A stretch of DNA of 64,000 nt from Candidatus Omnitrophota bacterium (GCA_030674475.1 JAUSCZ010000035.1:74682-138681), one strand, 5' to 3'; numbered from the stretch's first letter, positions 7,716 through 63,445 are shown. Made by a program: numbers and translations. Notes: a model not told the origin generated them from the letters alone.

Positions 7716-8345
7716 TTATTCCGTCTTCTTAGCAATAGTCCTGAATATCCACAAATAAACCCCTAAAAGGAAAAAGGCTCCGGGGGCGATGGTCAAAATC
7801 ACCCAGTTAGTCCAGGCCCCAGGCATCACCCTGTAACCTAAAATAGTGCCAAAGCCCAGAGGTTCGCGGATTAAAGCCATCAAAATCAGCATAAAGCTAT
7901 AACCAACACCATAGCCTAAACCATCCAAGAAAGAAAGCCAGGGCCCATTCTTGATCGCAAAGGCCTCGGCCCGGCCCATCAGGATACAGTTGGTAATAAT
8001 CAGGCCCACATAAGGGCCCATCTCTTCGCTGATAGGAGGAAAATAGGCCTTCAAAACCCTATCCACACAGATTACAAAGGTAGAGATAATTACCATATAA
8101 GCCAGCATCCGCACCCGGGAAGGTATGACATTACGAAAGAACGAAACAAAAAGACAGCTAAAGGCGGTGCATAAAGTAACCCCTATCCCCATAGCCAGGG
8201 CGTTCTCTAAGCGGTTAGTTATGGCCAGCATTGAGCAGATACCCAAAACCACGCAGAATGTGGGATGATCCTGCCACATCCCGATAGTTAAGGTCTTAAA
8301 CCACTTGGTCTGCTTTATGCTTCTTTTAAGCTGTTTCTTGGGCAT
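7716..8345 (-). CDS. rnfE: Rnf/Nqr complex subunit E (RnfE/NqrD family)
   Basis: 209-aa polytopic membrane protein paralogous to the A subunit; operon position. Confidence 0.75.
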   Translation of the reverse strand: MPKKQLKRSIKQTKWFKTLTIGMWQDHPTFCVVLGICSMLAITNRLENALAMGIGVTLCTAFSCLFVSFFRNVIPSRVRMLAYMVIISTFVICVDRVLKAYFPPISEEMGPYVGLIITNCILMGRAEAFAIKNGPWLSFLDGLGYGVGYSFMLILMALIREPLGFGTILGYRVMPGAWTNWVILTIAPGAFFLLGVYLWIFRTIAKKTE

Positions 8346-8435
8346 GGACCCTCGCTCCGCTCGGGAGTAGCCAGAGGCCAGTTGCCAGAGGCCAGATTTT
8401 TTTCTGGCTTCTGGCTTCTGGTTTCTGGTTACTAC
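8346..8435. repeat. 5'-UTR heptamer-repeat element: CCCTCGCTCCGCTCGGGAG-CCAGAGGCCAGTTGCCAGAGGCCAG-T7-CTGGCTTCTGGCTTCTGGTTTCTGGTTACT (copy 1 of 3)
   Basis: Near-identical to 58158-58243 and partially to 56055-56089. Lies immediately 5' of the rnfE ATG. The CCAGAGG and CTGGYTT arms can pair through G-U wobbles. Confidence 0.7.
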
Positions 8436-9007
8436 TTTCCGATCAGCAGGCTGAGCTTCTTTTGTATCGTTTCATTCAGCAATTTTTCTAAGGCCTTGCT
8501 GGAGCCAGTGGCGCCGGTAATCGCGTCTACTTCATTATTAGCCTTGGCCTTGCCGGAAGGCACAAAACTTATTCTAGGAATAATCTCTTTATTTCTAAAG
8601 CCTTTCAAATATTCAAATTCAGCGATCCTGCCGCCTAAACCAGGGGTTTCTTCTTGATGCAGTATCCTCAGCACCCGAATAGTCTTTAAATCCGAATTTA
8701 TGCTGAGTATGCCTTCAATAGTCCCCCATAATCCCGGCCCTTTAAATTTAAAGGCGGTGGTGCCGTCAACAGAAGCATAAAACACGCTATCTCCCTTCTC
8801 TAAGATCTTGACATTTTCATCAAAAAGCTCTAAGACATTTTCCGGACGGTAAGGAATCTCTAAAACATCCAAGACCGCGGATTTTAATTTCAATTCTTCA
8901 TTGCGGGCAATCATTGTCGCGGTTAAGGAGTTGATTCCAAAAAGCAATCCCCCGGAAATCGTTCCCATCGCGACCACAAAAATCAATATTCTTAAAGCGG
9001 ATTTCAT
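8432..9007 (-). CDS. rnfG: Rnf/Nqr complex subunit G (FMN-binding, RnfG/NqrC family)
   Basis: Single N-terminal TM helix, followed by the DAITGATGSS covalent-FMN attachment motif. Confidence 0.8.
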   Translation of the reverse strand: MKSALRILIFVVAMGTISGGLLFGINSLTATMIARNEELKLKSAVLDVLEIPYRPENVLELFDENVKILEKGDSVFYASVDGTTAFKFKGPGLWGTIEGILSINSDLKTIRVLRILHQEETPGLGGRIAEFEYLKGFRNKEIIPRISFVPSGKAKANNEVDAITGATGSSKALEKLLNETIQKKLSLLIGK

Positions 9008-11580: not shown

Positions 11581-11753
11581 GCTGGCTTGTTAATAATTTC
11601 ACAATCTAAATTTAAATAAAAAATGCTATTTTTGACGCAAACAGCATAACGGTTAAAATAACCCAAAAAACACCGTCTGTCAAGTTAAATCAGTAGGGGT
11701 GTCAAGCCAAATTAGAAATGTCGTATTATTATATTGGGATGACAGTTAAATCA

Positions 11754-11782
11754 GTAGGGGCAGGTTCAGAACCTGCCCCTAC
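11754..11782. repeat. REP-like palindrome variant GTAGGGGCAGGTTCAGAACCTGCCCCTAC overlapping the stop codon of the MiaB-like gene; likely terminator
   Basis: Perfect inverted repeat read from the sequence. Its left arm GTTAAATCAGTAGGGG is duplicated at 11684-11699. Confidence 0.65.
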
Positions 11783-13140
11783 ACTTTTTCCGCGATAAGG
11801 CCGTCTTTGTGGATTTTTAGCGGCCGGGCGGTAACAATTGTATTTACCGCGATTCCCGGCCCCTCAGGGAGAAATACCTTGATATAATTTCCGCTATGGC
11901 TGGGGAAAAATCCATCATCCGCGAAGCCGCCTGGCGATTCAACCAGCACGTCCAGATCCTTACCAATATATTGCCGGCAGAAATCCCGCGCTAATTCCTG
12001 AGCCAATTCCCGCGCCTGCTTTATCCTATCTTTGATAATCTCGGGCCTCACCGTTGCCGGAAATCTCCAAGCGGCTGTATTCTTACGTGGGCTAAAAGGA
12101 AAGATGTGTATCTTTGCCGGGCGGACTTCTCTTAAAAAATTAAGGGTATTCTTAAAATTTTCCTCTTCTTCCCCGGGAAAACCCACCATAATATCGGTAG
12201 TCAACCCGATATCCGGCATAAGCCTCCTCAGCTTAAGGATTAACTCGCGGCAATCTTCAGCTGAGGCCTTGCGGTTCATCAACTTCAATAGTGTATCATC
12301 CCCACTTTGAAAAGAAATATGCAGATGAGGCATCAGCTTCTTAGAGGAAGCCATCTTTTCTGTCAGGCAATCGCGGACATCCAGGGCTTCAATTGAGCTA
12401 AGCCGGATACGCGAAATCCCGTCAATTTCCTCTAAGGCTTCAATAACCCTAAGCAAGCCGTCTTTAAGGCCCAGATCCTTTCCATAAGCGCCTAAGCAAA
12501 TCCCGCAAAGCACTATCTCCTTATAGCCGTTTTCAGCTAAACCTCTGGCTTCCTCAATAATTTCCACTAAAAAGCGGCTGCGGGATGAACCGCGCAATCT
12601 GGGAATTATACAATAAGAACAGCCGTTATCACAACCGTCCTGAACCTTCAGGAATGCCCGGGTGTGCCTATGAAAAGCGCTGATGGTTCGACTACGCTCA
12701 CCATCAATCCTGAGCGAAATCGAAGGACTGATGGTTGGTTTTTTAATACCTGATAACAGTTCAACTCTGGGAAGTAACTGTGTCATTGCGAGGGGTTTTT
12801 CAGTGTTAGCTAAAATAAAATCGGCAAGACGGTCTTTCTCTTGGTTTCCTAAAACCCCTGCCACCCCTTTAAAGCGCTTTAGCTTCTCCGGGTCATTTTC
12901 CGCGGAACAACCGGTAACAAAAACCCGGGCCCGGGGGTGAGAGCGAGAGAGTTTGCGAATCTCCTCTTGAGATAAAGTATCGGCCCTGCGGGTAACCGCG
13001 CAGGTATTCACTATATACACATCCGCGCCGGGTGAATCCTTGCTCTCTTTAAATCCCAGGGCAATCATTCTCTCCCGCAGAACCTGGCTTTCATATTGAT
13101 TAACCTTACAACCTAAAGTTTTAACCTCAAATGTTTTCAT
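11779..13140 (-). CDS. MiaB/RimO-family radical SAM methylthiotransferase (ORF called to 13173; probable start at 13140, MKTFEVKTLGC)
   Basis: N-terminal MTTase cysteines (KTLGCKVNQYES), a radical SAM CSYC motif, and a C-terminal TRAM-like region. Confidence 0.8.
   Translation of the reverse strand: MKTFEVKTLGCKVNQYESQVLRERMIALGFKESKDSPGADVYIVNTCAVTRRADTLSQEEIRKLSRSHPRARVFVTGCSAENDPEKLKRFKGVAGVLGNQEKDRLADFILANTEKPLAMTQLLPRVELLSGIKKPTISPSISLRIDGERSRTISAFHRHTRAFLKVQDGCDNGCSYCIIPRLRGSSRSRFLVEIIEEARGLAENGYKEIVLCGICLGAYGKDLGLKDGLLRVIEALEEIDGISRIRLSSIEALDVRDCLTEKMASSKKLMPHLHISFQSGDDTLLKLMNRKASAEDCRELILKLRRLMPDIGLTTDIMVGFPGEEEENFKNTLNFLREVRPAKIHIFPFSPRKNTAAWRFPATVRPEIIKDRIKQARELAQELARDFCRQYIGKDLDVLVESPGGFADDGFFPSHSGNYIKVFLPEGPGIAVNTIVTARPLKIHKDGLIAEKV
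12680..12732. repeat. in-frame intragenic palindromic element, family A copy 1 (CTGATGGTTCGACTACGCTCACCATCAATCCTGAGCGAAATCGAAGGACTGAT)
   Basis: 52 of 53 nt identical to 13693-13745, which lies inside a different gene and reading frame. Confidence 0.8.
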
Positions 13141-13141
13141 A

Positions 13142-13930
13142 CTATGACGTGAATAAACGCAAAAAGGCCACAACGCTGATTGCCGCGGTATCTACCTTCA
13201 AAACCAAATCTCCCAAAGACGCCCCAATACAACCGTTTTCCTTGGCTGACTTGATTTCCCGTGGGCTAAAATCGCCTTCCGGGCCGATAAAAATTATTAT
13301 TGAGGAGGGCTTAGTGCGCTGTGTAATAAAATCGCAAAAAACCTCTTTTAGGGATTTATTTCCTGGGCCTAAATGCGGAATAACCGCCAGTTCATAATTT
13401 TTTACCTGAGAGACAACTTTACTAAATTCACTGATCGGCTCAATCTCCGGAAGTTTTATCCTGCCGCACTGCTTAGAGGCCTCAACCGCAATCGCCTGCC
13501 AGCGCTTCAGCTTTTCTTTAGCCTTCTCAGGAGAATATTTAACTATGGTTCTTTCAGTCTTTATAGGTATAATCCTATCCACACCCAGATCCACGGTCTT
13601 TTCAATAATATAGTCCATCTTGACTTTCTTAGGCAGGGCGCAGGCTAAAGTGAGAGCTAATTCTGCAGACATAGCTTTTCTGACTTTACCCACTGATGGT
13701 TCGACTACGCTCACCATCAATCCTGAGCGAAGTCGAAGGACTGATAACTCCACCTTATTCTTAGCAATACTATCAATCAGACACTCGTATTCCCGGGACT
13801 TACCGTCAAAAACCAGCACCTGGTCTCCTTTTTTAAGCCGCCTAACCGAAGACAAGTGATGAATCTGGCCGGGGTCTAAAATAGTTATTCTATCCCGGAT
13901 TATATTCGCGCGAGGGCAATAGATACGCAT
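13142..13930 (-). CDS. rsmE: 16S rRNA (uracil1498-N3)-methyltransferase RsmE
   Basis: PUA-like N-terminal domain plus a SPOUT C-terminal domain, ~260 aa. Confidence 0.7.
   Translation of the reverse strand: MRIYCPRANIIRDRITILDPGQIHHLSSVRRLKKGDQVLVFDGKSREYECLIDSIAKNKVELSVLRLRSGLMVSVVEPSVGKVRKAMSAELALTLACALPKKVKMDYIIEKTVDLGVDRIIPIKTERTIVKYSPEKAKEKLKRWQAIAVEASKQCGRIKLPEIEPISEFSKVVSQVKNYELAVIPHLGPGNKSLKEVFCDFITQRTKPSSIIIFIGPEGDFSPREIKSAKENGCIGASLGDLVLKVDTAAISVVAFLRLFTS
13693..13745. repeat. in-frame intragenic palindromic element, family A copy 2
   Basis: Same 53 nt as 12680-12732. Translated in rsmE as SVLRLRSGLMVSVVEPSV, versus ISPSISLRIDGERSRTISA in the MiaB-like gene. Confidence 0.8.
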
Positions 13931-14014
13931 AATAAGAAGAAACTAAAAAAACCATTAAAAAAACAAAAACAATTTTGGTAATAACCGCTGTTTAAGTTAT
14001 AATATAGGAAAGGA

Positions 14015-16219
14015 TTGGTGTTGTCAATGCTGTCACTTATAATGTCACTCATAATCTTCTGCTTAGGATTAGGTTCGATTATCTCCCAGTTCGTATTTCT
14101 GCGTGAACTGCACACCACCTTCCAGGGAAATGAACTCTCCTTGAGCCTGATATTATTCTCCTGGCTATTTGGTTCCGGAATAGGCGGCCTCTTAGGATTT
14201 TTCTTTTCCTTAAGGAAAAGAAAATCTATCCATTCGAATTACCTCAAAAATTTATTAAGCCTCATCCTGATATTCTCCGCCTTTTGGCTTTTTATCAGCC
14301 TATTCCTCAGCCGCGGCTTAAATCTGTTTCTCTCTATCAGTCCTTTTGAAATACTCCAGCCCGGGCAAATCCTCTTGATTTCAACCATAGTCATAGTCCC
14401 TCAGACAATTACCGTGGGATTATCCTTTATCCTTATCTGCTCAATAATCCAGAATCCCATTAAGGCTTATCTTTTAGAGGCCCTGGGGGCGTTTTTCGCC
14501 GGCCTGTTAAGCCTGATCCTGATAAAATATTTTAACAACTGCCAAATCATCTGGACAATAGCAATAATTTATACCGCATCCGGCCTTCTGCTTTTAAATA
14601 AAAAACTCACATATTATCGGCTCCTGCTAATAATATGGGCCTCCTGCGCTATCTTATCTCTAGCCATGCTTAGCAAGATTGAAGAGAGCACCCAAAATCT
14701 GCGCTTTGGACCTCAAAAACTTATTTACTCTACAGATTCTATCTATGCCAATATCGCGATTGTCAAAAACGCTGAATACTCCTACAGCCTTTATGAAAAT
14801 GGTAAACTCTCTTTCTCAACTGAAGACAGCGAATCAATTGAAGAATGGGCCCATATGCTTTTACTCAGCCACGCCACGCCGCGAAAGATTTTGCTTATCG
14901 GAGGAGGCGTCTCCGGAGTCATCTCCGAAATACTCAAACATCCAATTAAATCTATAGACTATCTGGAGCCGGATAAAAAGCTGATAGAATCTGTCCTAAA
15001 ACATATCCCCCAAAGCGCCTTTTATGGCCTTAGAGATAAAAAAGTAACTATATACAATCAAGACGCCCGGCCTTTCATCAAAGCTGCTTTTACTAAATAC
15101 GACTTAATTATTCTAAATTTAGGCGGCCCCTCCAGCTTGCAGTTAAACCGCTTCTACACCCAGGAGTTCTTTGAAAAGATAAAGAATATTTTAAGCCAAG
15201 AAGGCAGATTCTGTTTTTCTTTTGAATCCAAGGAAGATATCCTCGCCGGACAACTCCTGAAATATAACTCCTGTCTCTATAAAAGCGCTAAATCGGTATT
15301 CCCTTATCTTCAACTTATTCCCGGCGAACGCCTGACCCTCATCGGCTCAAGCGAAAATATCCCTAAAATAAACCCCGAAGAATTAGCCGCGAGATTTAAG
15401 GAAAGAGACATCCAAAGCAAATACTTTACGCCATATCATATCAAGGCAAAACTATTCCGGCAGGAGTATATCCAAAAAAGGCTGGAGGAAAATTTTAACC
15501 TTGCCAGCATAAACCGCGATTATTATCCTTCAGGTTTTTTCTATTATTTAGGCCTGCGGGGAAAACAAAGCTGGTTGAATTTCAACCGGATGTGGGAACT
15601 CTCCGGAAAAATAAAAATGATTTATGGCTTTGGCTGTATGGAAAGCCAAACCATTGCCTTGCTGGCTTACTGGATTGCCACGATGCTAATCCTTGGGGTT
15701 ATTGGACGCAAGAATATCGTTAATTTGTCCGTCTTCTCCAGCGGCTTCTATGGTATCGCCTTAGCAATAATTATCAGCCTGCTCTTTCAGATAAATCTGG
15801 GCTTTCTTTATTACCGCCTGGGAATGATTGTGGCTAATTTTATGTTAGGGCTTTCCTTAGGAGGGATTTTGTTTATATACCTGCGGAAAACAAAGCTATC
15901 CTGGGAAAGGGCGTTATTTTTATCGGAAATAGCCTTAGGAATTATTTCTCTACTGGCCGCGTTTATCTTAAAAGATAACCAACTCACTTATTTCCTGCTT
16001 ACCTTACTGGCGGGAATTATAATCGGCTTTGAATTCGGAATATTCTATAGCCGGAAAAAGACAATTACTATTTATATTTTAGATTTGTCCGGGGCCTGTC
16101 TGGGGAGCCTGTTGACCGGCTTAATCTTTGTTCCGGTATTAGGCATATATAACACCTGTTTACTTATTTCATCCGCCAAGCTTATCACTGCTTTTTTTCT
16201 GAGAATACCAAAGCGCTGA
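14015..16219 (+). CDS. multi-pass membrane protein fused to spermidine synthase-like (PABS) domain
   Basis: Many N- and C-terminal TM helices surround a central LLIGGGVSGV...IDYLEPD aminopropyltransferase-like Rossmann motif. Confidence 0.65.
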   Translation: MVLSMLSLIMSLIIFCLGLGSIISQFVFLRELHTTFQGNELSLSLILFSWLFGSGIGGLLGFFFSLRKRKSIHSNYLKNLLSLILIFSAFWLFISLFLSRGLNLFLSISPFEILQPGQILLISTIVIVPQTITVGLSFILICSIIQNPIKAYLLEALGAFFAGLLSLILIKYFNNCQIIWTIAIIYTASGLLLLNKKLTYYRLLLIIWASCAILSLAMLSKIEESTQNLRFGPQKLIYSTDSIYANIAIVKNAEYSYSLYENGKLSFSTEDSESIEEWAHMLLLSHATPRKILLIGGGVSGVISEILKHPIKSIDYLEPDKKLIESVLKHIPQSAFYGLRDKKVTIYNQDARPFIKAAFTKYDLIILNLGGPSSLQLNRFYTQEFFEKIKNILSQEGRFCFSFESKEDILAGQLLKYNSCLYKSAKSVFPYLQLIPGERLTLIGSSENIPKINPEELAARFKERDIQSKYFTPYHIKAKLFRQEYIQKRLEENFNLASINRDYYPSGFFYYLGLRGKQSWLNFNRMWELSGKIKMIYGFGCMESQTIALLAYWIATMLILGVIGRKNIVNLSVFSSGFYGIALAIIISLLFQINLGFLYYRLGMIVANFMLGLSLGGILFIYLRKTKLSWERALFLSEIALGIISLLAAFILKDNQLTYFLLTLLAGIIIGFEFGIFYSRKKTITIYILDLSGACLGSLLTGLIFVPVLGIYNTCLLISSAKLITAFFLRIPKR

Positions 16220-17864
16220 AAGTATATTTTTCGGTTTTCGCGTCCTTCCAGGAGTCAGCAGGCAAGCCTGCCTTATGAGCGCATAAATTAGAAAGGAACT
16301 CCTCCTTATTCCAGCCGGTCTCTTCAGCCACCTGAGGCAAAAATACCCCCTGGCTCCACCCCCGTTTGATCAACAAACCGTGCGTGCCTAACTGAAACTC
16401 AGCCACATCATCAATCTTTTTTAAAGGCGAGAGGACCGAAATTTCAATCTCAATATCCTTAAGCTCATCCTTGGTTACCGGCTCAAACCGGGGATCTCCG
16501 GTTGCCGACTCTATGGCCATATCCCTGATGGTTTCAAAAAGAGGCTTCTGGCCGATAATATTACCGATACAGCCTTTTAGCTTACCTTGCTTATGGATAG
16601 TTACAAAGGCACCGTTAATAGCCTTTAGCTGAGGATCATCTTCGCTAAAATCTAATTTTTTCCCGCTGGTTACATATTCCTGAATAGTCTTACGGGCAAT
16701 CTCCAGTAATCGCGCTTTCTGCGTATCATTCAACATAACTGTTTCTCCTGTCTTATCCTTATTAATTAAAGCTGATAAATACCCCACAGTCCACACCCCT
16801 TTTATCTTTTTACCGGAAACCTTAGCGGAATTAGTATGCCCCAAAAACTTTATTTGATTATAGCCTAAGCTTTGCGCGGTAAGTATCGCGCTGACCACCG
16901 GCAATCCCCCGCACATCTGGATTGAACCGTCTTTTAACTTCGCGTAAATATCCTGGGCAGACCCCGTTAGAAGCCTCTTACCGCTTTCAGATTGCTCCCC
17001 AGCTTCTAACGGGGCAGGCATCTTCCCTAAATAGGACAAAGTCAGCTTATCTACTCTCTCGGTTTCCTGGTAGTCATAACTGTGGCAAAGGTCCGTGGAA
17101 GCAATCAGCAACACATCTGAACGGCCCGCGATGGCTTTATTTAATATATCCGCCAAAACATTTAAACCGTGAAGGTCCGCGTCTCCAATCAAAATGGGAA
17201 CTATCTTAAAATCATCCAGGGTCTTTTGTAAGAAAGGAAGCTGAACCTCAATGGAATGTTCTTTTTCAAAAGCCTGAGGGATAAAGCTAATATTTTGGGA
17301 AGGAGAAATTATTTTTTGCGTAAAATCAGAGTCTACTTCTAGGTCTCCCAGGGGGGTTTGGAACTTACCGGATGGATATACTGAGACTCCCTTAAAATAA
17401 TACTGGTGACTGGGCCCCAGGAGGACCACGGTTTTATAAGGACGGCCTTTAATTAACTTATAGCCCAAGGCGGCGGTCGGCCCGGAGAAATCATAGCCGG
17501 CATGGGGAGAAATCAAACAAAATATTTCGCCTGTGGTGAGCGGTGGGTTGGCCGCGTTAAGCAGGTTTTCAACTTTATGGCTAAGCTCATCTTTATCCGC
17601 GGGATAAAACTGCCCGGCCACATTCGGTTTTTTTATCTCCTCGCCAAAGCTTAGGACATTAAAGCCAAAAAGCGCTCCCCCAAAAAAAAGGAAAAAAACA
17701 ATTGCTGTCCCTACTTTTCTCTTTGAAAAAAAGGAACTTCCCCCTTTCGTAAAGGGGGATGGAGGGGGATTTTCTAGGTTAGGGGAAATTTGGGAGCATT
17801 TACACAATGCACTAAGCCCAGATTCCGGCGATTGTTTCCTGACAAAACTTGCAATGCCCATCAA
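16185..17864 (-). CDS. AmmeMemoRadiSam system fusion protein: Memo1-like (protein B) plus AMMECR1 (protein A) domains, with N-terminal hydrophobic segment; start codon uncertain
   Basis: The Memo-like core is ISPHAGYDFSG...LCHSYDY. The AMMECR1 core is GAFVTIHKQGKLKGCIGNI...DPRF. A radical SAM partner is adjacent. Confidence 0.7.
   Translation of the reverse strand: MMGIASFVRKQSPESGLSALCKCSQISPNLENPPPSPFTKGGSSFFSKRKVGTAIVFFLFFGGALFGFNVLSFGEEIKKPNVAGQFYPADKDELSHKVENLLNAANPPLTTGEIFCLISPHAGYDFSGPTAALGYKLIKGRPYKTVVLLGPSHQYYFKGVSVYPSGKFQTPLGDLEVDSDFTQKIISPSQNISFIPQAFEKEHSIEVQLPFLQKTLDDFKIVPILIGDADLHGLNVLADILNKAIAGRSDVLLIASTDLCHSYDYQETERVDKLTLSYLGKMPAPLEAGEQSESGKRLLTGSAQDIYAKLKDGSIQMCGGLPVVSAILTAQSLGYNQIKFLGHTNSAKVSGKKIKGVWTVGYLSALINKDKTGETVMLNDTQKARLLEIARKTIQEYVTSGKKLDFSEDDPQLKAINGAFVTIHKQGKLKGCIGNIIGQKPLFETIRDMAIESATGDPRFEPVTKDELKDIEIEISVLSPLKKIDDVAEFQLGTHGLLIKRGWSQGVFLPQVAEETGWNKEEFLSNLCAHKAGLPADSWKDAKTEKYTFSALVFSEKKQ
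16961..17019. repeat. in-frame intragenic palindromic element, family B copy 1 (ACCCCGTTAGAAGCCTCTT...CTTCTAACGGGGCAGGC)
   Basis: About 85% identical to 35410-35470. Encodes MPAPLEAGEQSESGKRLLTGS in the middle of the Memo-AMMECR1 protein. Confidence 0.75.
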
Positions 17865-18954
17865 TAAGATTATTTACGGTAACACTATAGCCGACCCTGA
17901 CCAATAAGGCCTGAGCGCATTTTGGGCAAAAGGTGGTCTCGCCCTGATGTCCGGGGACATTCCCGATATAGGCGTATTTAAGGCCGGCCTTCTTAGCCAA
18001 GCTTTGAGCTTTCTCTAAAGTTGCCACTGGGGTCGGGGCTAAATTCGCCAGCTTATACATCGGCCAAAAGCGGGAAAAATGTATTGGCGTGTCCGGACCC
18101 AAGTTATCCCTTATCCATACGCACATCTCCTCCATCTCTTCTGAAGAATCATTTAACCCGGGTAAAACCAGATTAGTCAGTTCTAAGTGCACCTTTTCTT
18201 CTTTGATTATCTTTAAGGTTTGGAGGATATTCTCTAAATTTCCAAAACAAATATCTTCATAGTATTTCTGGCGGAAGGCCTTTAAGTCAATGTTAGCCGC
18301 GTCCAAATGTTTACAGAGATTGCGCAGGGGCTCTTCATTGATGAAGCCGGCGGAATGCATTATATTCTTAAGGCCGCTTGAGCGGGCCAAGGCCGCGGTA
18401 TCCAGCATATACTCATAAAAAATAGTCGGCTCGGTATAGGTATAGGCGACAGTCTGGGAGCCGGACTCTTTGGCCTGTTTAACTATATCTTGCGAACTAA
18501 GAAAAACCGGCTGAACATCCTCGGGCTTGCTTTGAGAAATCTCCCAGTTCTGGCAGAATTTGCACCTTAAATTACATCCGGCGGTGGCGATGGAAAATGC
18601 GGATGTCGCGGGAAGAAAATGAAAAAGCGGCTTTTTCTCTATCGGGTCAATATGCACTGCCGCCGCCTGAGAATGCACCAGGGTATATAAAACCCCCTGA
18701 TTATTTTCCCTCACCCCGCAAAAGCCTCTCTGCTTCTCAGTTATCAGGCATTTACGCGGACAAAGCTGACATTGCAGAGACTTTTCGTCTATGGGCTTCC
18801 AATATAAAGCCTTACTTTTATCTAAAGAGGCCCAAGCCGATTGAATCTTATCCGCGCCCAAACCCAAAAGGCCCATTCCCCCGCTTATCACAACCACCTG
18901 TTTTAAAAAATCTTTTCTGGTCATCATAATCGTTTTGGGGTCAGACCTCAACAA
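17812..18954 (-). CDS. AmmeMemoRadiSam system radical SAM enzyme with Tat-like N-terminal signal peptide
   Basis: CPRKC...C and CNLRCKFCQNWEIS clusters. The N-terminus MMTRKDFLKQVVVISGGMGLLGLGA...AWA resembles a twin-arginine signal (RK variant). Confidence 0.7.
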   Translation of the reverse strand: MLRSDPKTIMMTRKDFLKQVVVISGGMGLLGLGADKIQSAWASLDKSKALYWKPIDEKSLQCQLCPRKCLITEKQRGFCGVRENNQGVLYTLVHSQAAAVHIDPIEKKPLFHFLPATSAFSIATAGCNLRCKFCQNWEISQSKPEDVQPVFLSSQDIVKQAKESGSQTVAYTYTEPTIFYEYMLDTAALARSSGLKNIMHSAGFINEEPLRNLCKHLDAANIDLKAFRQKYYEDICFGNLENILQTLKIIKEEKVHLELTNLVLPGLNDSSEEMEEMCVWIRDNLGPDTPIHFSRFWPMYKLANLAPTPVATLEKAQSLAKKAGLKYAYIGNVPGHQGETTFCPKCAQALLVRVGYSVTVNNLIDGHCKFCQETIAGIWA

Positions 18955-19839: not shown

Positions 19840-20253
19840 CTAAGGACAACTCACCGCAGAACAACTTGCACAACCAGCGCCAGTCTTACTGGTCGTGCCG
19901 TTCTCATACATGTTTATAGTATAGTTGGTAGTGCCACAGGGATTTTTTTCCGAATTTCTTAGCGCCCGAGCTACAACAGTATTCGCAGACTCATCAACTA
20001 CCGTATAGGTAAAATAGGTGCCATTGGTAGTATTGTCAATATCTAAATTATCAAAACTATTAGTATAATTCCCGTTTTCTAAATAATAGCGCGTCTGGGC
20101 GCCGCGGATAGCGGCTAAGTTGGTTAGGGCTTCGCTCTGGCGGGAGCGCTCCACGGTTTTGGTATACTGGGGTATGGCCAGGGCGGACAGGATGCCAATG
20201 ATCACCACCACTACCACCAGTTCGATTATATTAAAGCCGGAATTTTTATTCAT
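19840..20253 (-). CDS. type IV pilin / pseudopilin
   Basis: GFNIIELVVVVVIIGILSALAIPQY prepilin N-terminus. Confidence 0.75.
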   Translation of the reverse strand: MNKNSGFNIIELVVVVVIIGILSALAIPQYTKTVERSRQSEALTNLAAIRGAQTRYYLENGNYTNSFDNLDIDNTTNGTYFTYTVVDESANTVVARALRNSEKNPCGTTNYTINMYENGTTSKTGAGCASCSAVSCP

Positions 20254-20257
20254 TTTT

Positions 20258-20327
20258 ACCCCTCCCCGCCTCCCCTTGCTAAGGGGAGGATTTCTTGTCG
20301 TAGGGGCGGGTTCGAACCCGCCCCTAC
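20258..20327. repeat. composite intergenic element: SD-sequestering hairpin module (CCCCTCCCCGCCTCCCCTTGCTAAGGGGAGGATTTCTT) plus REP palindrome GTAGGGGCGGGTTCGAACCCGCCCCTAC
   Basis: Fills the whole 76-nt intergenic gap and ends 4 nt from the pilin ATG. Copies occur at 37752-37821, 38456-38495 and 59380-59424, with related arms at 26623-26760. Confidence 0.8.
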
Positions 20328-20329
20328 TA

Positions 20330-26611: not shown

Positions 26612-26622
26612 AGTCTTTACCC

Positions 26623-26760
26623 GTAGGGGCGGGTTCGAACCCGCCCCTACCCCCGATAAGGGGAGGATTTCTTTCCGCCTGCCCCGCCAGCGGCGGTGGC
26701 CTCCCCCTGATAAAGGAAGTTTTCTTATCCCCTCCTTTACAAGGAGGGGTAGGGGAGGTA
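26623..26760. repeat. composite repeat: REP palindrome GTAGGGGCGGGTTCGAACCCGCCCCTAC followed by several CCCC/GGGGAGG-type hairpins
   Basis: Read directly from the sequence. Sits in the intergenic region between the PilM-like stop (26766) and the PilO-like start (26611). Confidence 0.75.
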
Positions 26761-28641: not shown

Positions 28642-28758
28642 AATCTGCCTCTGGCGCTTAGATTTTACTTGATTCTGAGCTCTGCGAAGAATCTTAAGGA
28701 ACAATCTGCCTCTGGCGCTTAGATTTTACTTGATTCTGAGCTCTGCGAAGAATCTTAA
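28642..28758. repeat. two tandem 61-bp direct repeats (AATCTGCCTCTGGCGCTTAGATTTTACTTGATTCTGAGCTCTGCGAAGAATCTTAA...), motif AGATTTTACTTG present 3 times
   Basis: Read from the sequence. Lies upstream of the excisionase-like gene, so these are candidate operator/iteron sites or a small RNA. Confidence 0.7.
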
Positions 28759-35054: not shown

Positions 35055-35473
35055 TGGTCACATCCAGTTCTATTAATAAGGCCGCCTTGGTTAGTAATAG
35101 TCATATTCCTACCACTACAGGCCAAACCGGAAACCGCGCGGGTAGCCGTGGCAGTAAAGCTTGGGCTGGTGGTGGCGTTAATAGAATAAGTAAAACTGTC
35201 TCCTTCTAAATCAATCCCTAAATTCTCAGTATCATTAGTATACTCTCCCTCGTTCAAATAATACCTCTGCTGGGCAGAGTAGATTAATTGCAGGTTAGCC
35301 TCGGCTTCTTTGGCCTTATTTTTCTCTGAAGATCGGCTAAAATTACCCATATTCAGGCTAACCAAAATCCCGATAATTACCAAAACCACCAGCAACTCAA
35401 TCATAGTAAACCCCGTTAGAAGCCTCTTGCCTCTTACAGGTTGCTCATTAACTTCTAACGGGGCAGGCCCCAT
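35048..35473 (-). CDS. type IV pilin with 21-aa leader (ORF track starts at TTG 35485; ATG at 35473 has an AGGAGA SD upstream)
   Basis: ...GKRLLTG|FTMIELLVVLVIIGILVS prepilin cleavage/methylation site. Confidence 0.7.
   Translation of the reverse strand: MGPAPLEVNEQPVRGKRLLTGFTMIELLVVLVIIGILVSLNMGNFSRSSEKNKAKEAEANLQLIYSAQQRYYLNEGEYTNDTENLGIDLEGDSFTYSINATTSPSFTATATRAVSGLACSGRNMTITNQGGLINRTGCDQW
35410..35470. repeat. family B palindromic element copy 2, encoding the pilin leader peptide
   Basis: About 85% identical to 16961-17019. The CCCCGTTAGAAG / CTTCTAACGGGG arms are an inverted repeat. Confidence 0.75.
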
Positions 35474-37345: not shown

Positions 37346-37747
37346 TTAATCCCGGTCGGTGGCGATATTTACCTGTTCAACCCCTAAATCCCGGGCCATA
37401 TCCCAGACCTCAACCACCCGGCCCAGCCTTGCTCCCTGATCCGCCATAATCAAAACCGGGCGTTTGGTTTTCTTGGCCTCATTAAGAACAATCTTAATCT
37501 CTTTGGCAGTTAAAACCTTTTTATCCAAATAAATGACATTTTCCCGGCTGATAGTAATAATAATGGTGTCTCCTTCGCTGGCCTCCGCGCTTACCGCCTT
37601 GGGTAGATTCACCTTGATTCCCGACTGCACGATAAAACTTGAGGTCAGCATAAAAAATATCAAAAGCTGAAACACCATATCTATCAAAGGGGTAATATCA
37701 ATCTGGCGCAGGCCATGCTCCAATTCCATATGTCTTTTAAAGCGCAT
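37346..37747 (-). CDS. exbD: biopolymer transport protein ExbD/TolR
   Basis: Single TM segment (IDITPLIDMVFQLLIFFMLTS) plus a periplasmic domain; 133 aa. Confidence 0.85.
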   Translation of the reverse strand: MRFKRHMELEHGLRQIDITPLIDMVFQLLIFFMLTSSFIVQSGIKVNLPKAVSAEASEGDTIIITISRENVIYLDKKVLTAKEIKIVLNEAKKTKRPVLIMADQGARLGRVVEVWDMARDLGVEQVNIATDRD

Positions 37748-37751
37748 TTTT

Positions 37752-37821
37752 ACCCCTCCCCGCCTCCCTTTGTTAAGGGGAGGATTTCTCCCCGTAGGGG
37801 CGGGTTCGAACCCGCCCCTAC
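37752..37821. repeat. composite intergenic element (SD-hairpin module plus REP palindrome) between exbB stop and exbD start
   Basis: ACCCCTCCCCGCCTCCCTTTGTTAAGGGGAGGATTTCTCCCCGTAGGGGCGGGTTCGAACCCGCCCCTAC. The exbB stop codon TAG lies inside the palindrome. Confidence 0.8.
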
Positions 37822-38450
37822 TCCGTAAGGAAATTGACTAATTCGGTTGCCGCTTTTTCCATCTCTAAAATCACGGAGTTAACCCGGCCTACCAGGTAAT
37901 TATAAGTGATAAAAGCCGGTATGGCCACCACCAGGCCTGCCACCGTGGTTAAAAGCGCCTCCCAAATTCCCCCGGCCAGGTCTCCCGGGCTGACCGGGTG
38001 GCTGGCGGTAGACTTGACTTGAATAGTATTAAAACAAGTAACCATTCCGGTAACCGTGCCTAAAAGCCCTAAAAGAGGGGCAATGTGGGCAATGGTGGCC
38101 AAAACGTTTAAATTCTTTTCTAATATCGGTATCTCATACAAAGAGGCGTCTTCAATAGCCTCCTTAATATCCTGACGGCTCCTGCCATGCTTTAGTATCC
38201 CGGCCTTTAAAATCTGGCCTACCGGGCTTAAGGTTTTATCACAGTCATAAATTGCCTCTTTTATCTTCTGTTGTTTTAACTTCTCCAATACATTCCTCAG
38301 GAAATAAGTAGAATTTATTTTTATCTTTCTCAGATACCACAATTTCTCTATAGTTATTGCCAGGGCCCATATTGAACTGATAAGTATGGGCCACATAACC
38401 GGCCCGCCAGCCAAAAAAAGCTTCCAAAAATTCATCTGCCAGATATTCAT
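37818..38450 (-). CDS. exbB: MotA/TolQ/ExbB proton-channel family protein
   Basis: Three TM helices with a conserved ExbB core (GLLGTVTGMV). Confidence 0.85.
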   Translation of the reverse strand: MNIWQMNFWKLFLAGGPVMWPILISSIWALAITIEKLWYLRKIKINSTYFLRNVLEKLKQQKIKEAIYDCDKTLSPVGQILKAGILKHGRSRQDIKEAIEDASLYEIPILEKNLNVLATIAHIAPLLGLLGTVTGMVTCFNTIQVKSTASHPVSPGDLAGGIWEALLTTVAGLVVAIPAFITYNYLVGRVNSVILEMEKAATELVNFLTE

Positions 38451-38455
38451 TTTCT

Positions 38456-38495
38456 TACCCCTCCCCGCCTCCCCTTGTTAAGGGGAGGATTTTTT
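38456..38495. repeat. SD-hairpin module copy (CCCCTCCCCGCCTCCCCTTGTTAAGGGGAGGATTTTTT) directly upstream of exbB ATG
   Basis: Read from the sequence; this copy has no REP palindrome attached. Confidence 0.8.
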
Positions 38496-38499
38496 GCCT

Positions 38500-38640
38500 C
38501 CAACAAGTTATTAAACTCTAAATCCTAAATTCTAAACTCGAAACCCTAAACAAATCCCAAACCCAAAACATTATATTTTTAGTTTTGAGTTTATGATTTT
38601 GCCTGCCTGCCGGCAGGCAGGAGTTTGTTTAGGATTTAGG
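38500..38640. terminator. large inverted-repeat region (CTAAATCCTAAA... / ...TTTAGGATTTAGGG arms around the perfect palindrome GCCTGCCTGCCGGCAGGCAGG)
   Basis: Read from the sequence; lies downstream of the TPR gene stop. Confidence 0.55.
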
Positions 38641-55137: not shown

Positions 55138-56054
55138 ATTCCTCCTAATAACTTTAAAAGAATCGCCTTTTGCGCGTGCAATCTGTTTTCCGCTTGGTCA
55201 AAGACTACCGATTTTGAGGAATCAATCACCTCATCGGTTATTTCTTCTCCCCGGTGCGCCGGCAGACAATGCATAATCAAACAATTTTTCTTGGCGGAGG
55301 AAACAAGTTTTTGATTAATTTGATAATCCCGGAATATTTTCCTTCGCGCCTTGGCCTCTTTTTCCTGGCCCATGCTCGTCCAGACATCAGTATAAATCAC
55401 ATCCGCGTTTTTGCAAGCTTTTAATGGGTCGCGGCTTAAGCTGATCAAGGCCCCGGAAATCGAAGCCATACCCAAGGCCTCTTTAAAAACTGTCTTATCC
55501 GGCTCAAATTTTTTGGGTGTGGCGATATTCAGGTTTAAGCCGATTTTCGCGCAGCCGTAAAGAAGAGAATGGGTAACATTGTTACCATCGCCGCAATAAG
55601 TTAAGGTCCTGCCTTTAAACGAGCCGAATTTCTCTCTTATGGTATATAAATCCGCTAAGGCCTGGCAGGGATGCGAAAGGTCGGAAAGCCCGTTAATCAC
55701 CGGCACACTGGCGTATTTTGCCAGTTCTATAATATTCTTATGCTCAAAGGTCCGCAGAACTATTCCGTCAACATAGCGAGAGAGCGTCTGAGCCACATCC
55801 CTGATTGCCTCTCTCACCCCTAAATTTATTTCCCCCGGACCCAAATAAATGCTTAACCCCCCAAGCTGAAATATGCCCACCGCGAAAGATACCCTGGTCC
55901 TGTTGGACGGCTTCTGAAAAATAAGGGCCAGGGTCTTTCCTTTTAAACTCTGGGAGTATTTTTGCTTGTTTTCTTTAAGCTTGTCCGTAAGCAGAAAAAT
56001 CTCTTCTATTTCCTTCAAGCTTAAATCCTTAACTGATATTAAATCTTTTTTCAT
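55134..56054 (-). CDS. argF: ornithine carbamoyltransferase
   Basis: STRTR carbamoyl-phosphate motif and HCLP ornithine-binding motif. Confidence 0.85.
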   Translation of the reverse strand: MKKDLISVKDLSLKEIEEIFLLTDKLKENKQKYSQSLKGKTLALIFQKPSNRTRVSFAVGIFQLGGLSIYLGPGEINLGVREAIRDVAQTLSRYVDGIVLRTFEHKNIIELAKYASVPVINGLSDLSHPCQALADLYTIREKFGSFKGRTLTYCGDGNNVTHSLLYGCAKIGLNLNIATPKKFEPDKTVFKEALGMASISGALISLSRDPLKACKNADVIYTDVWTSMGQEKEAKARRKIFRDYQINQKLVSSAKKNCLIMHCLPAHRGEEITDEVIDSSKSVVFDQAENRLHAQKAILLKLLGGI

Positions 56055-56068
56055 TCTCTGGTTGCTGG

Positions 56069-57256
56069 TTACTGGTTTCTGGTTACTACAGTCAACACCA
56101 TATCCAATATCCCCACTGCCTTATCAATCTGCTTGCAAGTTACATTTAAGGCCGGCATCAGCCTTAAGACCGTTTCGTGAGTGCAGTTAATCAATAAACC
56201 TCTTTTAATACACTCCTCGACTACCGGCTTCCCTGCCGTATTCAGTTCAATGCCAATCATCAACCCCAGGCCGCGGACTTCTTTGATTATAGAATATTTC
56301 TTAGCCAACTCTGATAATCTCTTTTTTAAATATTCCCCCATTTCCCGGGCATTGGCAATCAGCTTTTCTTTACGCAGGGCCTTAAATACCCCTAAAGAGG
56401 CCCTACAGACCAGAGGGCTCCCTCCAAAGGTAGAGGCATGTCTTCCCGGGCCCAGGATATCAGCAATTTCTTTTCTCGCCACCATTGCTCCGATAGGTAA
56501 ACCCCCTCCCAGGGCCTTGGCTAAGGTCATTATATCCGGAGTGATTCCGTAGTGCTGATACGCGAACATCTTGGCAGTCCGGCCTAGGCCGGTCTGGACC
56601 TCATCCGCGATCAAAAGTATCTTTTTCTCATCGCAAAGCTTTCTTAAATATAAGACAAAATCCTGATCGGCAACATTTATCCCTCCTTCGCCCTGCACCA
56701 GCTCAATAATAATTCCCGCGGTTTTATCCGATAGCGCGTTTTTCAAGGCATCCCTGTCATTATAGGCAACGCTTTTAAAACCCTCAGGAAGCGGTTCGAA
56801 GCCCTCTTGATATTTGCTCTGACCGGTCATAGTCAGGGACGCCAGGGTCCTGCCGTGAAAGGAATTCTCAAATGAGATTATCTCATATCTGCCCGCGCCA
56901 TACGCCCGGGTGAGCTTTACCGCGGCCTCATTGGCCTCAGCCCCGGAATTGGCAAAAAACACCTTACCGGGAAAGGAGTGATAAATTATTTCTTTGGCTA
57001 ATTTTGCCTGGGGAATAGACAGGTAATTGTTAGGCAGATGAATCAGCTTATCTATCTGGTCCCGGACCGCCGAGACCACATCCGGATGGCAATGCCCCAA
57101 AGAACTCACCCCCCAGCCGGGAAAGAAATCCAGGTATTCCTTGCCGTCAACATCAATAACCTTCATCCCCTTTCCTTTGACAAAAATCAAAGGTATCCGG
57201 GTATAGGTAGGCATGATGTAATCCTGATAGGCCTGAAAGATTTCTTGCTTCTTCAT
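56069..57256 (-). CDS. argD: acetylornithine aminotransferase (class III)
   Basis: Class III PLP-aminotransferase signature (...ADEVQTGLGRTA...). Confidence 0.85.
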   Translation of the reverse strand: MKKQEIFQAYQDYIMPTYTRIPLIFVKGKGMKVIDVDGKEYLDFFPGWGVSSLGHCHPDVVSAVRDQIDKLIHLPNNYLSIPQAKLAKEIIYHSFPGKVFFANSGAEANEAAVKLTRAYGAGRYEIISFENSFHGRTLASLTMTGQSKYQEGFEPLPEGFKSVAYNDRDALKNALSDKTAGIIIELVQGEGGINVADQDFVLYLRKLCDEKKILLIADEVQTGLGRTAKMFAYQHYGITPDIMTLAKALGGGLPIGAMVARKEIADILGPGRHASTFGGSPLVCRASLGVFKALRKEKLIANAREMGEYLKKRLSELAKKYSIIKEVRGLGLMIGIELNTAGKPVVEECIKRGLLINCTHETVLRLMPALNVTCKQIDKAVGILDMVLTVVTRNQ

Positions 57257-57302: not shown

Positions 57303-58157
57303 TTATTTAATGATTTCGGTGCCGATTCCCTGCTTGGTAAAGATCTCTAAGAGCAAGGCGTGGGGAATCCGGGCATCTATAATATGGGTCTTCTTTACCG
57401 TGGCCTCTAAAGCGGATATACAGCTCTTCACCTTAGGGATCATCCCTTGATGCACTGCCCCTTCCTTAATCAAACCATTGGCCTCGGAAATAGTCAAGGT
57501 GGAAATAAGCGAACTAGTGTCTGAGGTAGAGCGCATAATTCCCCGCACATTAGTCAAAACTACTAATTTTTCCGCGCACAGGCTGGAGGCAACCCTGGAG
57601 GCCGCCTCATCAGCATTAATATTATAGGTTTTTCCGTCTTTGCCTTTTCCCATCGGACACAATACCGGGATAGAGTAATTCTTAGTTTCCCGAAGTATCG
57701 GCTCAGTATCTATCGCTTCCACCTCCCCCACCAGGCCCAAATCCTTAGCCTCTTGTCTTTTACGGGCTAAGATTACCCCGCTATCTTTACTGGAGAACCC
57801 TGTCGCCTTTTGGCCTAATTCCTGAAGCTCCGAAACAATTATCGCGTTAAGCTTCTCCAGCTCTTCCTCGACCACCGCCAGGGTCTTCGCGTCAGTAACC
57901 CGCATCCCGTCCACAAACTCGGTCTTCATACCCTCCTGCTTCATCCTCTCGGATATATTCGGCCCGCCGCCGTGAACCAGGACCGGGCACAAACCCATAT
58001 AGCTTAAGAAAACTATATCCTCCAAAACCCCCTGGCGGATTTTTTCATCGCCTAAAATGCTCCCACCATATTTTATCACCATCACCTTGCGGTGAAATTC
58101 CTTAATATAAGGCAAAGCCTCAATCAAAACATCCGCTTTTCTAATCGCGTCTTCCAT
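57303..58157 (-). CDS. argB: acetylglutamate kinase
   Basis: Amino-acid kinase family (VIKYGGS...VLVHGGGP). Confidence 0.85.
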   Translation of the reverse strand: MEDAIRKADVLIEALPYIKEFHRKVMVIKYGGSILGDEKIRQGVLEDIVFLSYMGLCPVLVHGGGPNISERMKQEGMKTEFVDGMRVTDAKTLAVVEEELEKLNAIIVSELQELGQKATGFSSKDSGVILARKRQEAKDLGLVGEVEAIDTEPILRETKNYSIPVLCPMGKGKDGKTYNINADEAASRVASSLCAEKLVVLTNVRGIMRSTSDTSSLISTLTISEANGLIKEGAVHQGMIPKVKSCISALEATVKKTHIIDARIPHALLLEIFTKQGIGTEIIK

Positions 58158-58243
58158 GTGCCCTCGCTCCGCTCGGGAGAAACCAGAGGCCAGTTGCCAG
58201 AGACCAGATTTTTCTGGTTACTGGTTACTGGTTTCTGGTTACT
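58158..58243. repeat. 5'-UTR heptamer-repeat element copy 2 (same as 8346-8435), immediately upstream of argB ATG
   Basis: CCCTCGCTCCGCTCGGGAGAAACCAGAGGCCAGTTGCCAGAGACCAGATTTTTCTGGTTACTGGTTACTGGTTTCTGGTTACT. Confidence 0.75.
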
Positions 58244-62539: not shown

Positions 62540-62616
62540 AATATTTTAAACCATCGAACAAAGGAACAAAGAAGAACAAAGAAGACGCTTTATATAACTT
62601 ATTAATAGGCAATAAA

Positions 62617-63303
62617 TTACCTATTAACTATTTCTCTTCGCGGCCTACCATTCCGAGGCATAAATACTCCTCGCTCTAATACTAATCTTCTTAAGAATTC
62701 ACCTGAACCCAGCGGTTTTTCAAAATCATCAAATAATTCCTCTTCTTTTTCATCAAATTCCAGTAGAAAACTCTGATATTTCAATCTTCTTCCTTCAGCC
62801 GTTAGTCCAAAAGTGGCAAATAAAGGATTCTCCTCTGTAAGACTGTCCACTTTACCATAAATATAATATGCCGCGCTGCTAAACGGATATTCAGCCGCTG
62901 ACTGAACAAGCCCGGCATTAATCGGATTTCTCTCAATATATCTTCCGCAGGTTAATAGATATTCTTCCTTCTCGACAGCCTGGCATTTAAATCTACCCTG
63001 AAAAAGATGCCCAACGGAGTTATATTTTTTATGATAATAGTAAACATAAGAACGCGCGATACCGGCCATAATGGACGATATTTCTTTAGGATTATCCAAC
63101 GCCAGCAGGAGATGGTAGTGATTAGACATAATGACCCAGTGATGAATCCTTAAGTTACGCTGGCGGGTATATTTAGTTAATATCTCAATAAAACGGTTAT
63201 AATCTTCGTTATCATGGAAAATATTATTCTTGGCGTTTCCTCTATTAAAGATATGATAGATCAGCGACCCAGTTATACTATAAGAACGGGCTGTATAAGG
63301 CAT
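62617..63303 (-). CDS. IS200/IS605-family Y1 (HUH) transposase, REP-associated tyrosine transposase (RAYT)-like
   Basis: HUH motif (SNHYHLLL), a downstream catalytic Tyr region (YVYYYHKKY), and a ~228 aa size. Confidence 0.7.
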   Translation of the reverse strand: MPYTARSYSITGSLIYHIFNRGNAKNNIFHDNEDYNRFIEILTKYTRQRNLRIHHWVIMSNHYHLLLALDNPKEISSIMAGIARSYVYYYHKKYNSVGHLFQGRFKCQAVEKEEYLLTCGRYIERNPINAGLVQSAAEYPFSSAAYYIYGKVDSLTEENPLFATFGLTAEGRRLKYQSFLLEFDEKEEELFDDFEKPLGSGEFLRRLVLERGVFMPRNGRPRREIVNR

Positions 63304-63370
63304 AGATTAAACTATATTGGAGAATGATAATGTTGTCAAATAGTTTTTGTGTATCTATAAGGTATTCAAT

Positions 63371-63445
63371 TTGTTATGTAAAGCGTCTTCTTAAAACTTT
63401 AAAAATTTGTTATGTAAAGCGTCTTCTTAAACTTTTAAATTTTAA
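63371..63445. repeat. tandem direct repeat (AATTTGTTATGTAAAGCGTCTTCTTAAAACTTTAAA x2) upstream of the transposase gene
   Basis: Read from the sequence. Confidence 0.7.

Follow-up and report, generated by a model that had tools for sequence, protein, structure and literature searches.

The 64,000-nt stretch of DNA analysed here (the window), from Candidatus Omnitrophota bacterium (GCA_030674475.1 JAUSCZ010000035.1:74682-138681), carries two copies of a 48-nt hairpin unit inside the genes of an MtaB-type tRNA methylthiotransferase and of the 16S rRNA methyltransferase RsmE. The unit is probably mobile DNA: a miniature hairpin-forming element, non-autonomous and of the repetitive extragenic palindrome (REP) and miniature inverted-repeat transposable element (MITE) class, presumably moved by a Y1/HUH enzyme. 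In relatives it occupies at least 18 further genes. As far as sequence comparison goes, orthologous empty sites prove the insertion in RsmE and, independently, a second one in the Memo gene of a relative. Intragenic palindromic elements are a known phenomenon, while this element family itself is new and unusually small.

The 48-nt unit and its insertion sites

The original prediction described a 53-nt palindromic element present in two unrelated genes. A search with the 53-mer, degenerate (R) at one position, recovered both copies on the plus strand with 0 mismatches, identical to each other at 52 of 53 positions (Table 1). They lie, as predicted, in two different coding sequences (CDSs) and are translated in different frames with the peptides originally quoted, LRLRSGLMVSVVEPSV (residues 65-80 of RsmE) and ..SPSISLRIDGERSRTIS.. 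(MtaB). No further copy of the 53-mer, labelled family D12 in our repeat survey, was found in the window, where 0 matches are expected from 100 dinucleotide shuffles. Both copies fold into a strong hairpin (z-scores of -4.2 to -4.3, best strand for each copy). The length of 53 nt holds for the repeated stretch; the inserted unit measures 48 nt, and the other 5 nt are the repeated target ATCAG. Similarly, the TGATGGT/ACCATCA inverted repeat reported earlier does exist, but it is secondary and reflects flank-to-loop pairing, whereas the dominant palindrome is a 14-bp stem (TTCGACTACGCTCA / TGAGCGAARTCGAA) enclosing the 10-nt loop CCATCAATCC, a hairpin of 38 nt.

Read in order, the unit consists of TCC, arm B (TTCGACNNCGCTCA), the loop GGAYTGATGG, arm B' (TGAGCGNNGTCGAA) and CCATCAR. 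Its left flank pairs with one half of the loop and its right flank with the other, an interleaved palindrome (flank, arm, loop, arm', flank) with a 48-nt period. The unit lands directly 3' of an ATCAR pentanucleotide, which is also carried at its own end. Insertion leaves it bracketed by a 5-nt direct repeat, the complement of which forms the middle of the loop. As its length is divisible by three and its 48-nt period is stop-free in four of the six frames, insertion into an open frame leaves the gene unbroken. The encoded 16-residue peptide is mostly hydrophilic (..PSTTLRIDGERSRTI.., ..DGSTSLTINPERSRRI.. or ..LRLRSGLMVSxVEPS..).

Table 1. Positions of the element copies, their host genes and related features in the window
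Feature	Position	Strand	Remarks
Element copy 1	12680..12732	-	inside MtaB linker; 48-nt unit plus 5-nt repeated target (ATCAG, gene strand)
Element copy 1, parts	arms 12687-12700, 12711-12724; loop 12701-12710		
Element copy 2	13693..13745	-	inside RsmE; unit 13693-13740, target ATCAG 13741-13745 (plus strand: CTGAT)
Element copy 2, parts	arms 13700-13713, 13724-13737; loop 13714-13723		
MtaB-type tRNA methylthiotransferase CDS (host gene 1)	11779..13140	-	Pfam UPF0004 and Radical_SAM
RsmE 16S rRNA methyltransferase CDS (host gene 2)	13142..13930	-	Pfam PUA_4 and Methyltrans_RNA
Empty target site AATATTAGCTTT in Memo/AMMECR1 gene	17295..17306 (approximate)	-	from alignment breakpoints; orthologous to the filled metagenome site L127
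Y1 HUH (RAYT/IS200-like) transposase gene	62620..63306	-	Pfam Y1_Tnp 1e-14; 229 aa

In RsmE the element occupies the linker between the PUA and methyltransferase domains. The top database match of this protein is a 100%-identical one from a Candidatus Omnitrophota metagenome-assembled genome. Exactly 16 residues, between ..VELSV and GKVRK.., are absent from 12 solved RsmE structures and from 18 orthologs, including some that are 82-92% identical. The segments of 18-19 residues first proposed as insertions are thereby lineage-specific in RsmE, though the exact insert is 16 residues long. At the DNA level, the empty site GGAGTT-ATCAGT-GGGTAAA is intact in five syntenic loci (L001, L002, L004, L005 and L006), and the filled site in the window reads ATCAGT, a 42-nt hairpin, ATCAGT. 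In an overall confident AlphaFold model of RsmE, the only protein modelled (mean predicted local distance difference test score, pLDDT, 89.9), residues 73-88 score below 50 and belong to the PUA-methyltransferase coil that contains the insert; the insert is accordingly modelled as a disordered coil in the interdomain linker.

A second filled and empty pair was found by chance in the Memo gene, where metagenome locus L127 is filled, and L006 (AATATCAGCTTT) and the window itself (Table 1) are empty. In the RsmE and Memo pairs alike, TCC-arm-loop-arm'-CCATCAG stands directly 3' of a pre-existing ATCAG, and the net addition is exactly 48 nt, or 16 codons.

The MtaB copy lies between the UPF0004 and Radical_SAM domains. 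More distant orthologs are without it, but it is not private to this genome: orthologs of 86-89% identity have it in the same position. Loci L005 and L166 have two tandem units at this site, and L006 is essentially empty with an ATCAGC target retained. By these comparisons, the MtaB copy is the older and the RsmE copy recent; the latter was probably copied from the former, which lies 1 kb away and differs by one base.

The MtaB interdomain linker is a hotspot of repeat insertion. Adjoining the element at 12745-12800 is a fragment of another repeat family (gene strand ..ACTGAAAAACCCCTCGCAATGACACAGTTACTTCCCAGAGTTGAACTGTTATCAGG.., encoding ..PLAMTQLLPRVELLSGIKK..), of which ortholog P0139 has a longer form, CEGAKRPKQSQKGIASSLSLLAMTQLLPKAELLSGIKK. 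Around the Memo site, solo arms or half elements such as GTGGTGAGCGCAGTCGAACCA occur near or within the insertion point (L006 at ~930-960, L127 at ~1140-1170, and the Memo gene of L002), and at a third site both L002 and L127 retain a remnant of 5 residues (INGSTSLTIK). The solo arms and the remnant suggest decay or half-insertion of the element.

Distribution across genes and phyla

Independent JGI and ENA metagenome assemblies were scanned for the window subfamily. In all, 60 copies were recovered from 55 loci, and their flanks form 44 distinct pairs. An assembly artefact, raised at the outset as a possible explanation, can thus be rejected, for the element recurs at 44 distinct sites in independent assemblies. 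The ends are constant across the 60 copies, (A)TCAATCC...CCATCAA, with the last A changed to G in the window, L127, L150 and L153. Several copies sit within AAATCAA runs. Doublets at exactly 48-nt spacing occur in three loci; such tandem arrays follow from the ability of a second unit to land in the repeat of the first.

A site was scored as intragenic when its copy lay in an open reading frame (ORF) 200 codons or longer and was 30 codons or more from each end. This holds for 20 of the 44 sites, and overall ~45-60% of the window-subfamily sites are intragenic. Significant Pfam domains were found in 16 of the 18 spanning ORFs tested (9 of 10 and 7 of 8). The genes hit encode PolA (DNA polymerase I), GltX, GatB, QueA, LpxB, HolB (DNA polymerase III delta') and a PilB-type ATPase, together with Memo, DegT, SurA-like and PrmC-like methyltransferase proteins, glycosyltransferases and radical-SAM enzymes. 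Unrelated genes and intergenic DNA alike carry the same sequence, which occurs in either orientation and in four reading frames. Copies in genes are confined to the stop-free frames, all four of which are used, the hydrophilic PSTTLRIDGERSRTI and DGSTSLTINPERSRRI being the commonest. The inserted peptide is presumably translated and tolerated rather than removed.

The hairpin belongs to a wider family. A pattern made of the arms only (24 specified bases) was run against one-genome-per-species data of 596 Gb and matched at least 120 loci in at least 10 phyla, with fewer than 1 expected by chance on our own estimate. Among the matches listed are Leucothrix, Scalindua, many cyanobacteria, Chloroflexales, Aquificaceae, Bacteroidota, Acidobacteriota, Desulfobacterota, Pirellulales and Omnitrophota, often with several copies per genome. 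The arms are conserved base for base across phyla, and the loops and flanks vary by lineage. A short inverted repeat brackets each arm: 3.4-3.6 of 4 flank bases match the loop, against ~1.6 in shuffled sequence. In short-loop subfamilies the two flanks repeat each other directly and are complementary to the middle of the loop, as seen in 50 of 154 copies where 2.2 were expected (maximum 7), and the flank/loop pairs covary by subfamily (ATCAAT/ATTGAT, CATTGA/TCAATG, GCCGAT/ATCGGC, GTCAA/TTGAC and TCAG/CTGA). Only 19 of 128 cross-phylum copies among the matches listed lie in long ORFs. Hence, the strong intragenic habit is specific to the Omnitrophota subfamily, whose unit happens to equal 16 codons.

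A scan of positions 12300-14100 against Rfam (E<=10) returned one meaningless match only, so the element is not a known RNA family. A full-text literature search for the arm sequences and the encoded peptides gave no relevant match, and a search for Omnitrophota together with palindromic repeats gave nothing relevant.

Possible mechanism and competing explanations

We regard a Y1/HUH single-strand transposase of the IS200/IS605-RAYT type (insertion sequence, IS; REP-associated tyrosine transposase, RAYT), acting in trans, as the most likely agent of movement. Such a transposase would recognise the hairpin, the target would be chosen by base pairing with an internal guide, the loop, and the element would be pasted 3' of the target without true duplication. 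A fixed non-palindromic pentanucleotide target, the same pentanucleotide at the element end, internal complementarity and a hairpin together point to an IS200/IS605-type pattern. ISDra2 inserts 3' of TTGAT (PMC2806898), the reverse complement of ATCAA, and in IS608 the target is read through base pairing to a guide within the element (PMC5934647). The loop-target pairing of our element may be used for recognition in the same way. The window does hold a Y1 gene (Table 1), whose best match in the PDB is E. coli TnpA-REP (4ER8) and whose NHYH and YIERNP motifs agree with RAYT subclass 2.1. The gene is a candidate for the class of mobilising enzyme, with no demonstrable link to the element.

Several observations weigh against this mechanism. 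The Y1 gene is flanked by unrelated inverted repeats, AGAAGACGCTTTAYATAAC, at 62580-62598 and 63376-63394. A strict HUH...Y motif scan of all ~180 loci gave no match, and a relaxed scan of the same loci returned the window Y1 gene, which element copies do not flank, and a hydrogenase in L008, but no other Y1 gene beside a copy. IS200/IS605 elements have two different subterminal hairpins and a guide 5' of the hairpin foot, whereas our element has a single hairpin. The constant 5-nt flanking repeat would fit a target-specific DDE transposase with a 5-bp duplication equally well. Furthermore, the copies visible within the 64-kb window number two, and translation of the inserted peptide is assumed. 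The hydrogenase was rejected as a Y1 transposase, being a false positive of the relaxed motif. The right-hand inverted repeat of the Y1 gene is apparently duplicated just downstream.

A far-reaching version of the mechanism, which we consider doubtful, would make the element the smallest self-targeting mobile DNA yet seen. The 10-nt loop of a single 38-nt hairpin would act as a DNA guide for ATCAR-type targets, would tolerate wobble in the window copies (ATCAGT vs ATTGAT) and would re-programme the target when mutated, and a single widespread hairpin-binding enzyme, probably of the Y1/HUH kind, would account for the arms being conserved base for base in at least 10 phyla. The differing loop/target pairs of the Omnitrophota and Pirellulales subfamilies are consistent with such re-programming.

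Alternatively, the element could be a classical MITE moved by a DDE transposase, with 14-16-nt arms as terminal inverted repeats and a strong target preference, ATCAR being a truly duplicated 5-bp target site. The MITE signature, inverted repeats at the termini together with a direct repeat on the flanks, is present, and in both filled and empty pairs the repeat is a sequence present once in the empty site. We nevertheless hold this to be unlikely. At 43 nt plus the duplication, the element falls below the usual MITE size of 70-300 bp (PMC3733652), an invariant non-palindromic 5-nt target is unusual for DDE enzymes, and no parental IS with the element ends was seen in any of the ~180 loci; the covariation of repeat and loop is not predicted by this model either.

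Spread without a transposase, in which template switching or gene conversion at ATCAR microhomology copies the 48-nt unit and slippage produces tandem arrays, appears less probable still. Hairpins are known to promote polymerase stalling, the RsmE copy has a near-identical donor close by in the same orientation, with both copies bounded by ATCAG, and arrays of exact 48-nt period do exist. On the other hand, the dispersal of 44 sites over many contigs speaks against template switching, 5 nt of microhomology is very short for two coordinated switches, and base-exact arms across phyla argue for a sequence-specific protein partner.

It is very improbable that the inserts remain untranslated, the ribosome hopping from a take-off codon to an identical landing codon 48 nt downstream so that the original protein is restored. 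Translational bypass has precedents in T4 gene 60 and in the mitochondrial 'byp' elements. The direct repeat does supply identical codons on both sides (in RsmE, ..TTA TCA before the unit and CCA TCA GTG at its end), with a stable hairpin beginning right after the take-off position. However, no stop codon follows the take-off site, the codon phase of the repeat differs among genes, and copies in genes use only stop-free frames, as expected from selection for read-through.

We give practically no credence to a reading without any insertion, in which MtaB and RsmE would owe these segments to ancestry, as functional linker peptides, or to a protein module common to both: conservation of the MtaB peptide at 86-89% identity would suit it, but for RsmE it is already refuted by 18 of 18 aligned orthologs and the 12 structures, distant MtaB orthologs lack the segment and L006 keeps a bare ATCAGC target, and the same DNA is found in four frames, both orientations, unrelated genes and intergenic DNA. 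An intein or intron was rejected, the element being far too small and without catalytic features.

Comparison with known repeats, implications and other repeats of the window

The original prediction assigned the element to the type of Rickettsia palindromic elements (RPEs). RPEs are described as being ~100-150 bp, confined to Rickettsia and in several cases tagged with CGTC (Ogata et al. 2000/2002, summarised in PMC10969869 and PMC3733652). What stands of the assignment is the behaviour: both are palindromic selfish DNAs inserted in-frame into many unrelated housekeeping genes, with a tolerated peptide and with intergenic copies too. The identity does not stand. Our element adds 48 nt, has a defined ATCAR target, carries neither a CGTC nor a GTAG tag and resides in another phylum; membership among RPEs as so described is implausible given the Omnitrophota host, and size and tag set it further apart.

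The accompanying remark, that such elements have seldom been described outside Rickettsiales, no longer holds. REPs lying in-frame within genes were reported in 2013 from several phyla, with Opitutus, Thauera, Thioalkalivibrio and others among the hosts; genes for replication and repair, such as those of DNA polymerase I, uvrA and recBCD, were notable targets (PMC3733652), and RAYT genes contain such REPs as well (PMC6006769). For REPs and REPINs, among which dimers and clusters are common, a Y1 transposase (RAYT) is the suspected mobiliser (PMC3733652, PMC6006769, PMC3116915). Like REPs, which are multi-copy hairpins of 20-40 nt sometimes found in-frame in genes, our element has a 38-nt hairpin and occupies 44 sites in relatives. 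Unlike the GTAG/CGTC REPs, it is without an unpaired tag in 60 of 60 copies, its feet reading ..ATCAATCC, stem, CCATCAA.., and GTAG is confined to the stem of those copies that have TA as their variable dinucleotide. REPs are moreover mostly extragenic, whereas this element is so often intragenic and has a flanking direct repeat complementary to its loop. No REPtron, that is, no RAYT gene flanked by element copies, was found among the ~180 loci scanned, the window Y1 gene having unrelated flanks.

With MITEs the element shares inverted arms, but its 5-nt flanking repeat is invariant (ATCAR) and loop-complementary and may reflect target-specific pasting rather than duplication; a standard MITE measures 70-300 bp and has a parental IS, against a 48-nt unit here and no IS with its ends in ~180 loci. 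Like IS608 and ISDra2 of the IS200/IS605 type, it is inserted 3' of a fixed non-palindromic target of 4-5 nt complementary to an internal sequence, with a hairpin as the likely recognition structure and no need for true duplication. Those elements are hundreds to thousands of nt long with two subterminal hairpins, whereas here a single 38-nt hairpin, which holds the complement in its loop, would have to serve as both ends. The small dispersed repeats (SDRs) of Nostocaceae, reportedly described by Elhai et al. in 2008, a paper cited in PMC5861425, are said to be 21-27 nt long, with conserved secondary structure, self-nesting and tandem heptamer runs. Our element resembles them as a mobile repeat under 100 nt with conserved secondary structure, self-nesting and short tandem heptamer runs, but it is unrelated in sequence, and the SDRs are restricted to Nostocaceae and do not have in-frame gene insertion as a hallmark.

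The main interest of the element lies in its minimal size, its defined loop-complementary target, the conservation of its arms across phyla and the frequency of its insertions in essential genes. Many 'lineage-specific insertions' in conserved proteins of Omnitrophota and other uncultured phyla are repeat-derived; to interpret them as adaptive domains would be a mistake, and they can mislead orthology calls, phylogenetic alignments and structure prediction. The insertions also amount to a natural catalogue of where essential enzymes (PolA, GltX, GatB, QueA, RsmE, MtaB and others) can accommodate a 16-residue loop. With a 48-nt unit, a fixed loop-complementary target and cross-phylum arms, the element offers a compact system for testing REP-like movement.

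Other repeats of the window were observed as well. The D11 palindrome (ACCCCGTTAGAAGC...GCTTCTAACGGGGCAGGC), unrelated to the 48-nt element, lies in-frame at 16961-17019 within the Memo/AMMECR1 ORF (16188-17873, minus strand), where it adds ~19 residues (MPAPLEAGEQSESGKRLLTG) missing in the L002 ortholog. It has a second copy at 35410-35468, and the RsmE ortholog of L005 has an in-frame insertion of a related, D11-like palindrome of 69 nt.

Near-perfect 28-nt palindromes (GTAGGGGCGGGTTCGAACCCGCCCCTAC) at 11753-11782, 20299-20326, 26622-26649 and 37793-37820 correspond to the 'double-foot' GTAG...CTAC REP known from RAYT subclass 2.4. The first of them is degenerate and overlaps the end of MtaB, for which its CTAC foot provides the TAG stop codon. 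Families D1 and D2 (..CCCCTCCCCGCCTCCCCTTGYTAAGGGGAGGATTTCTT..) are often fused to the GTAG REP (20251-20328, 37745-37822, 38450-38527, 59373-59450 and 26641-26679).

A composite repeat, CATGnnCCCTCGCTCCGCTCGGGAG..CCAGAGGCCAGTTGCCAGAGGCCAG followed by short tandem runs of the TTCTGGTTACTGG type, occurs at 8343-8447, 56054-56087, 58155-58243 and 59660-59693, the last inside a 357-codon ORF; similar peptides ('SGLPSDRQSHK' and 'SGWQPNSQSH') are insertions in MtaB and RsmE orthologs P0166 and P0049. Finally, two exact copies of a 56-nt repeat (AATCTGCCTCTGGCGCTTAGATTTTACTTGATTCTGAGCTCTGCGAAGAATCTTAA) lie 61 nt apart, start to start, at 28642-28758 with no spanning ORF, and sequence related to it (..aagtaaaatctaagcgccagaggcaga..) flanks element copies in L136, L142 and L151.

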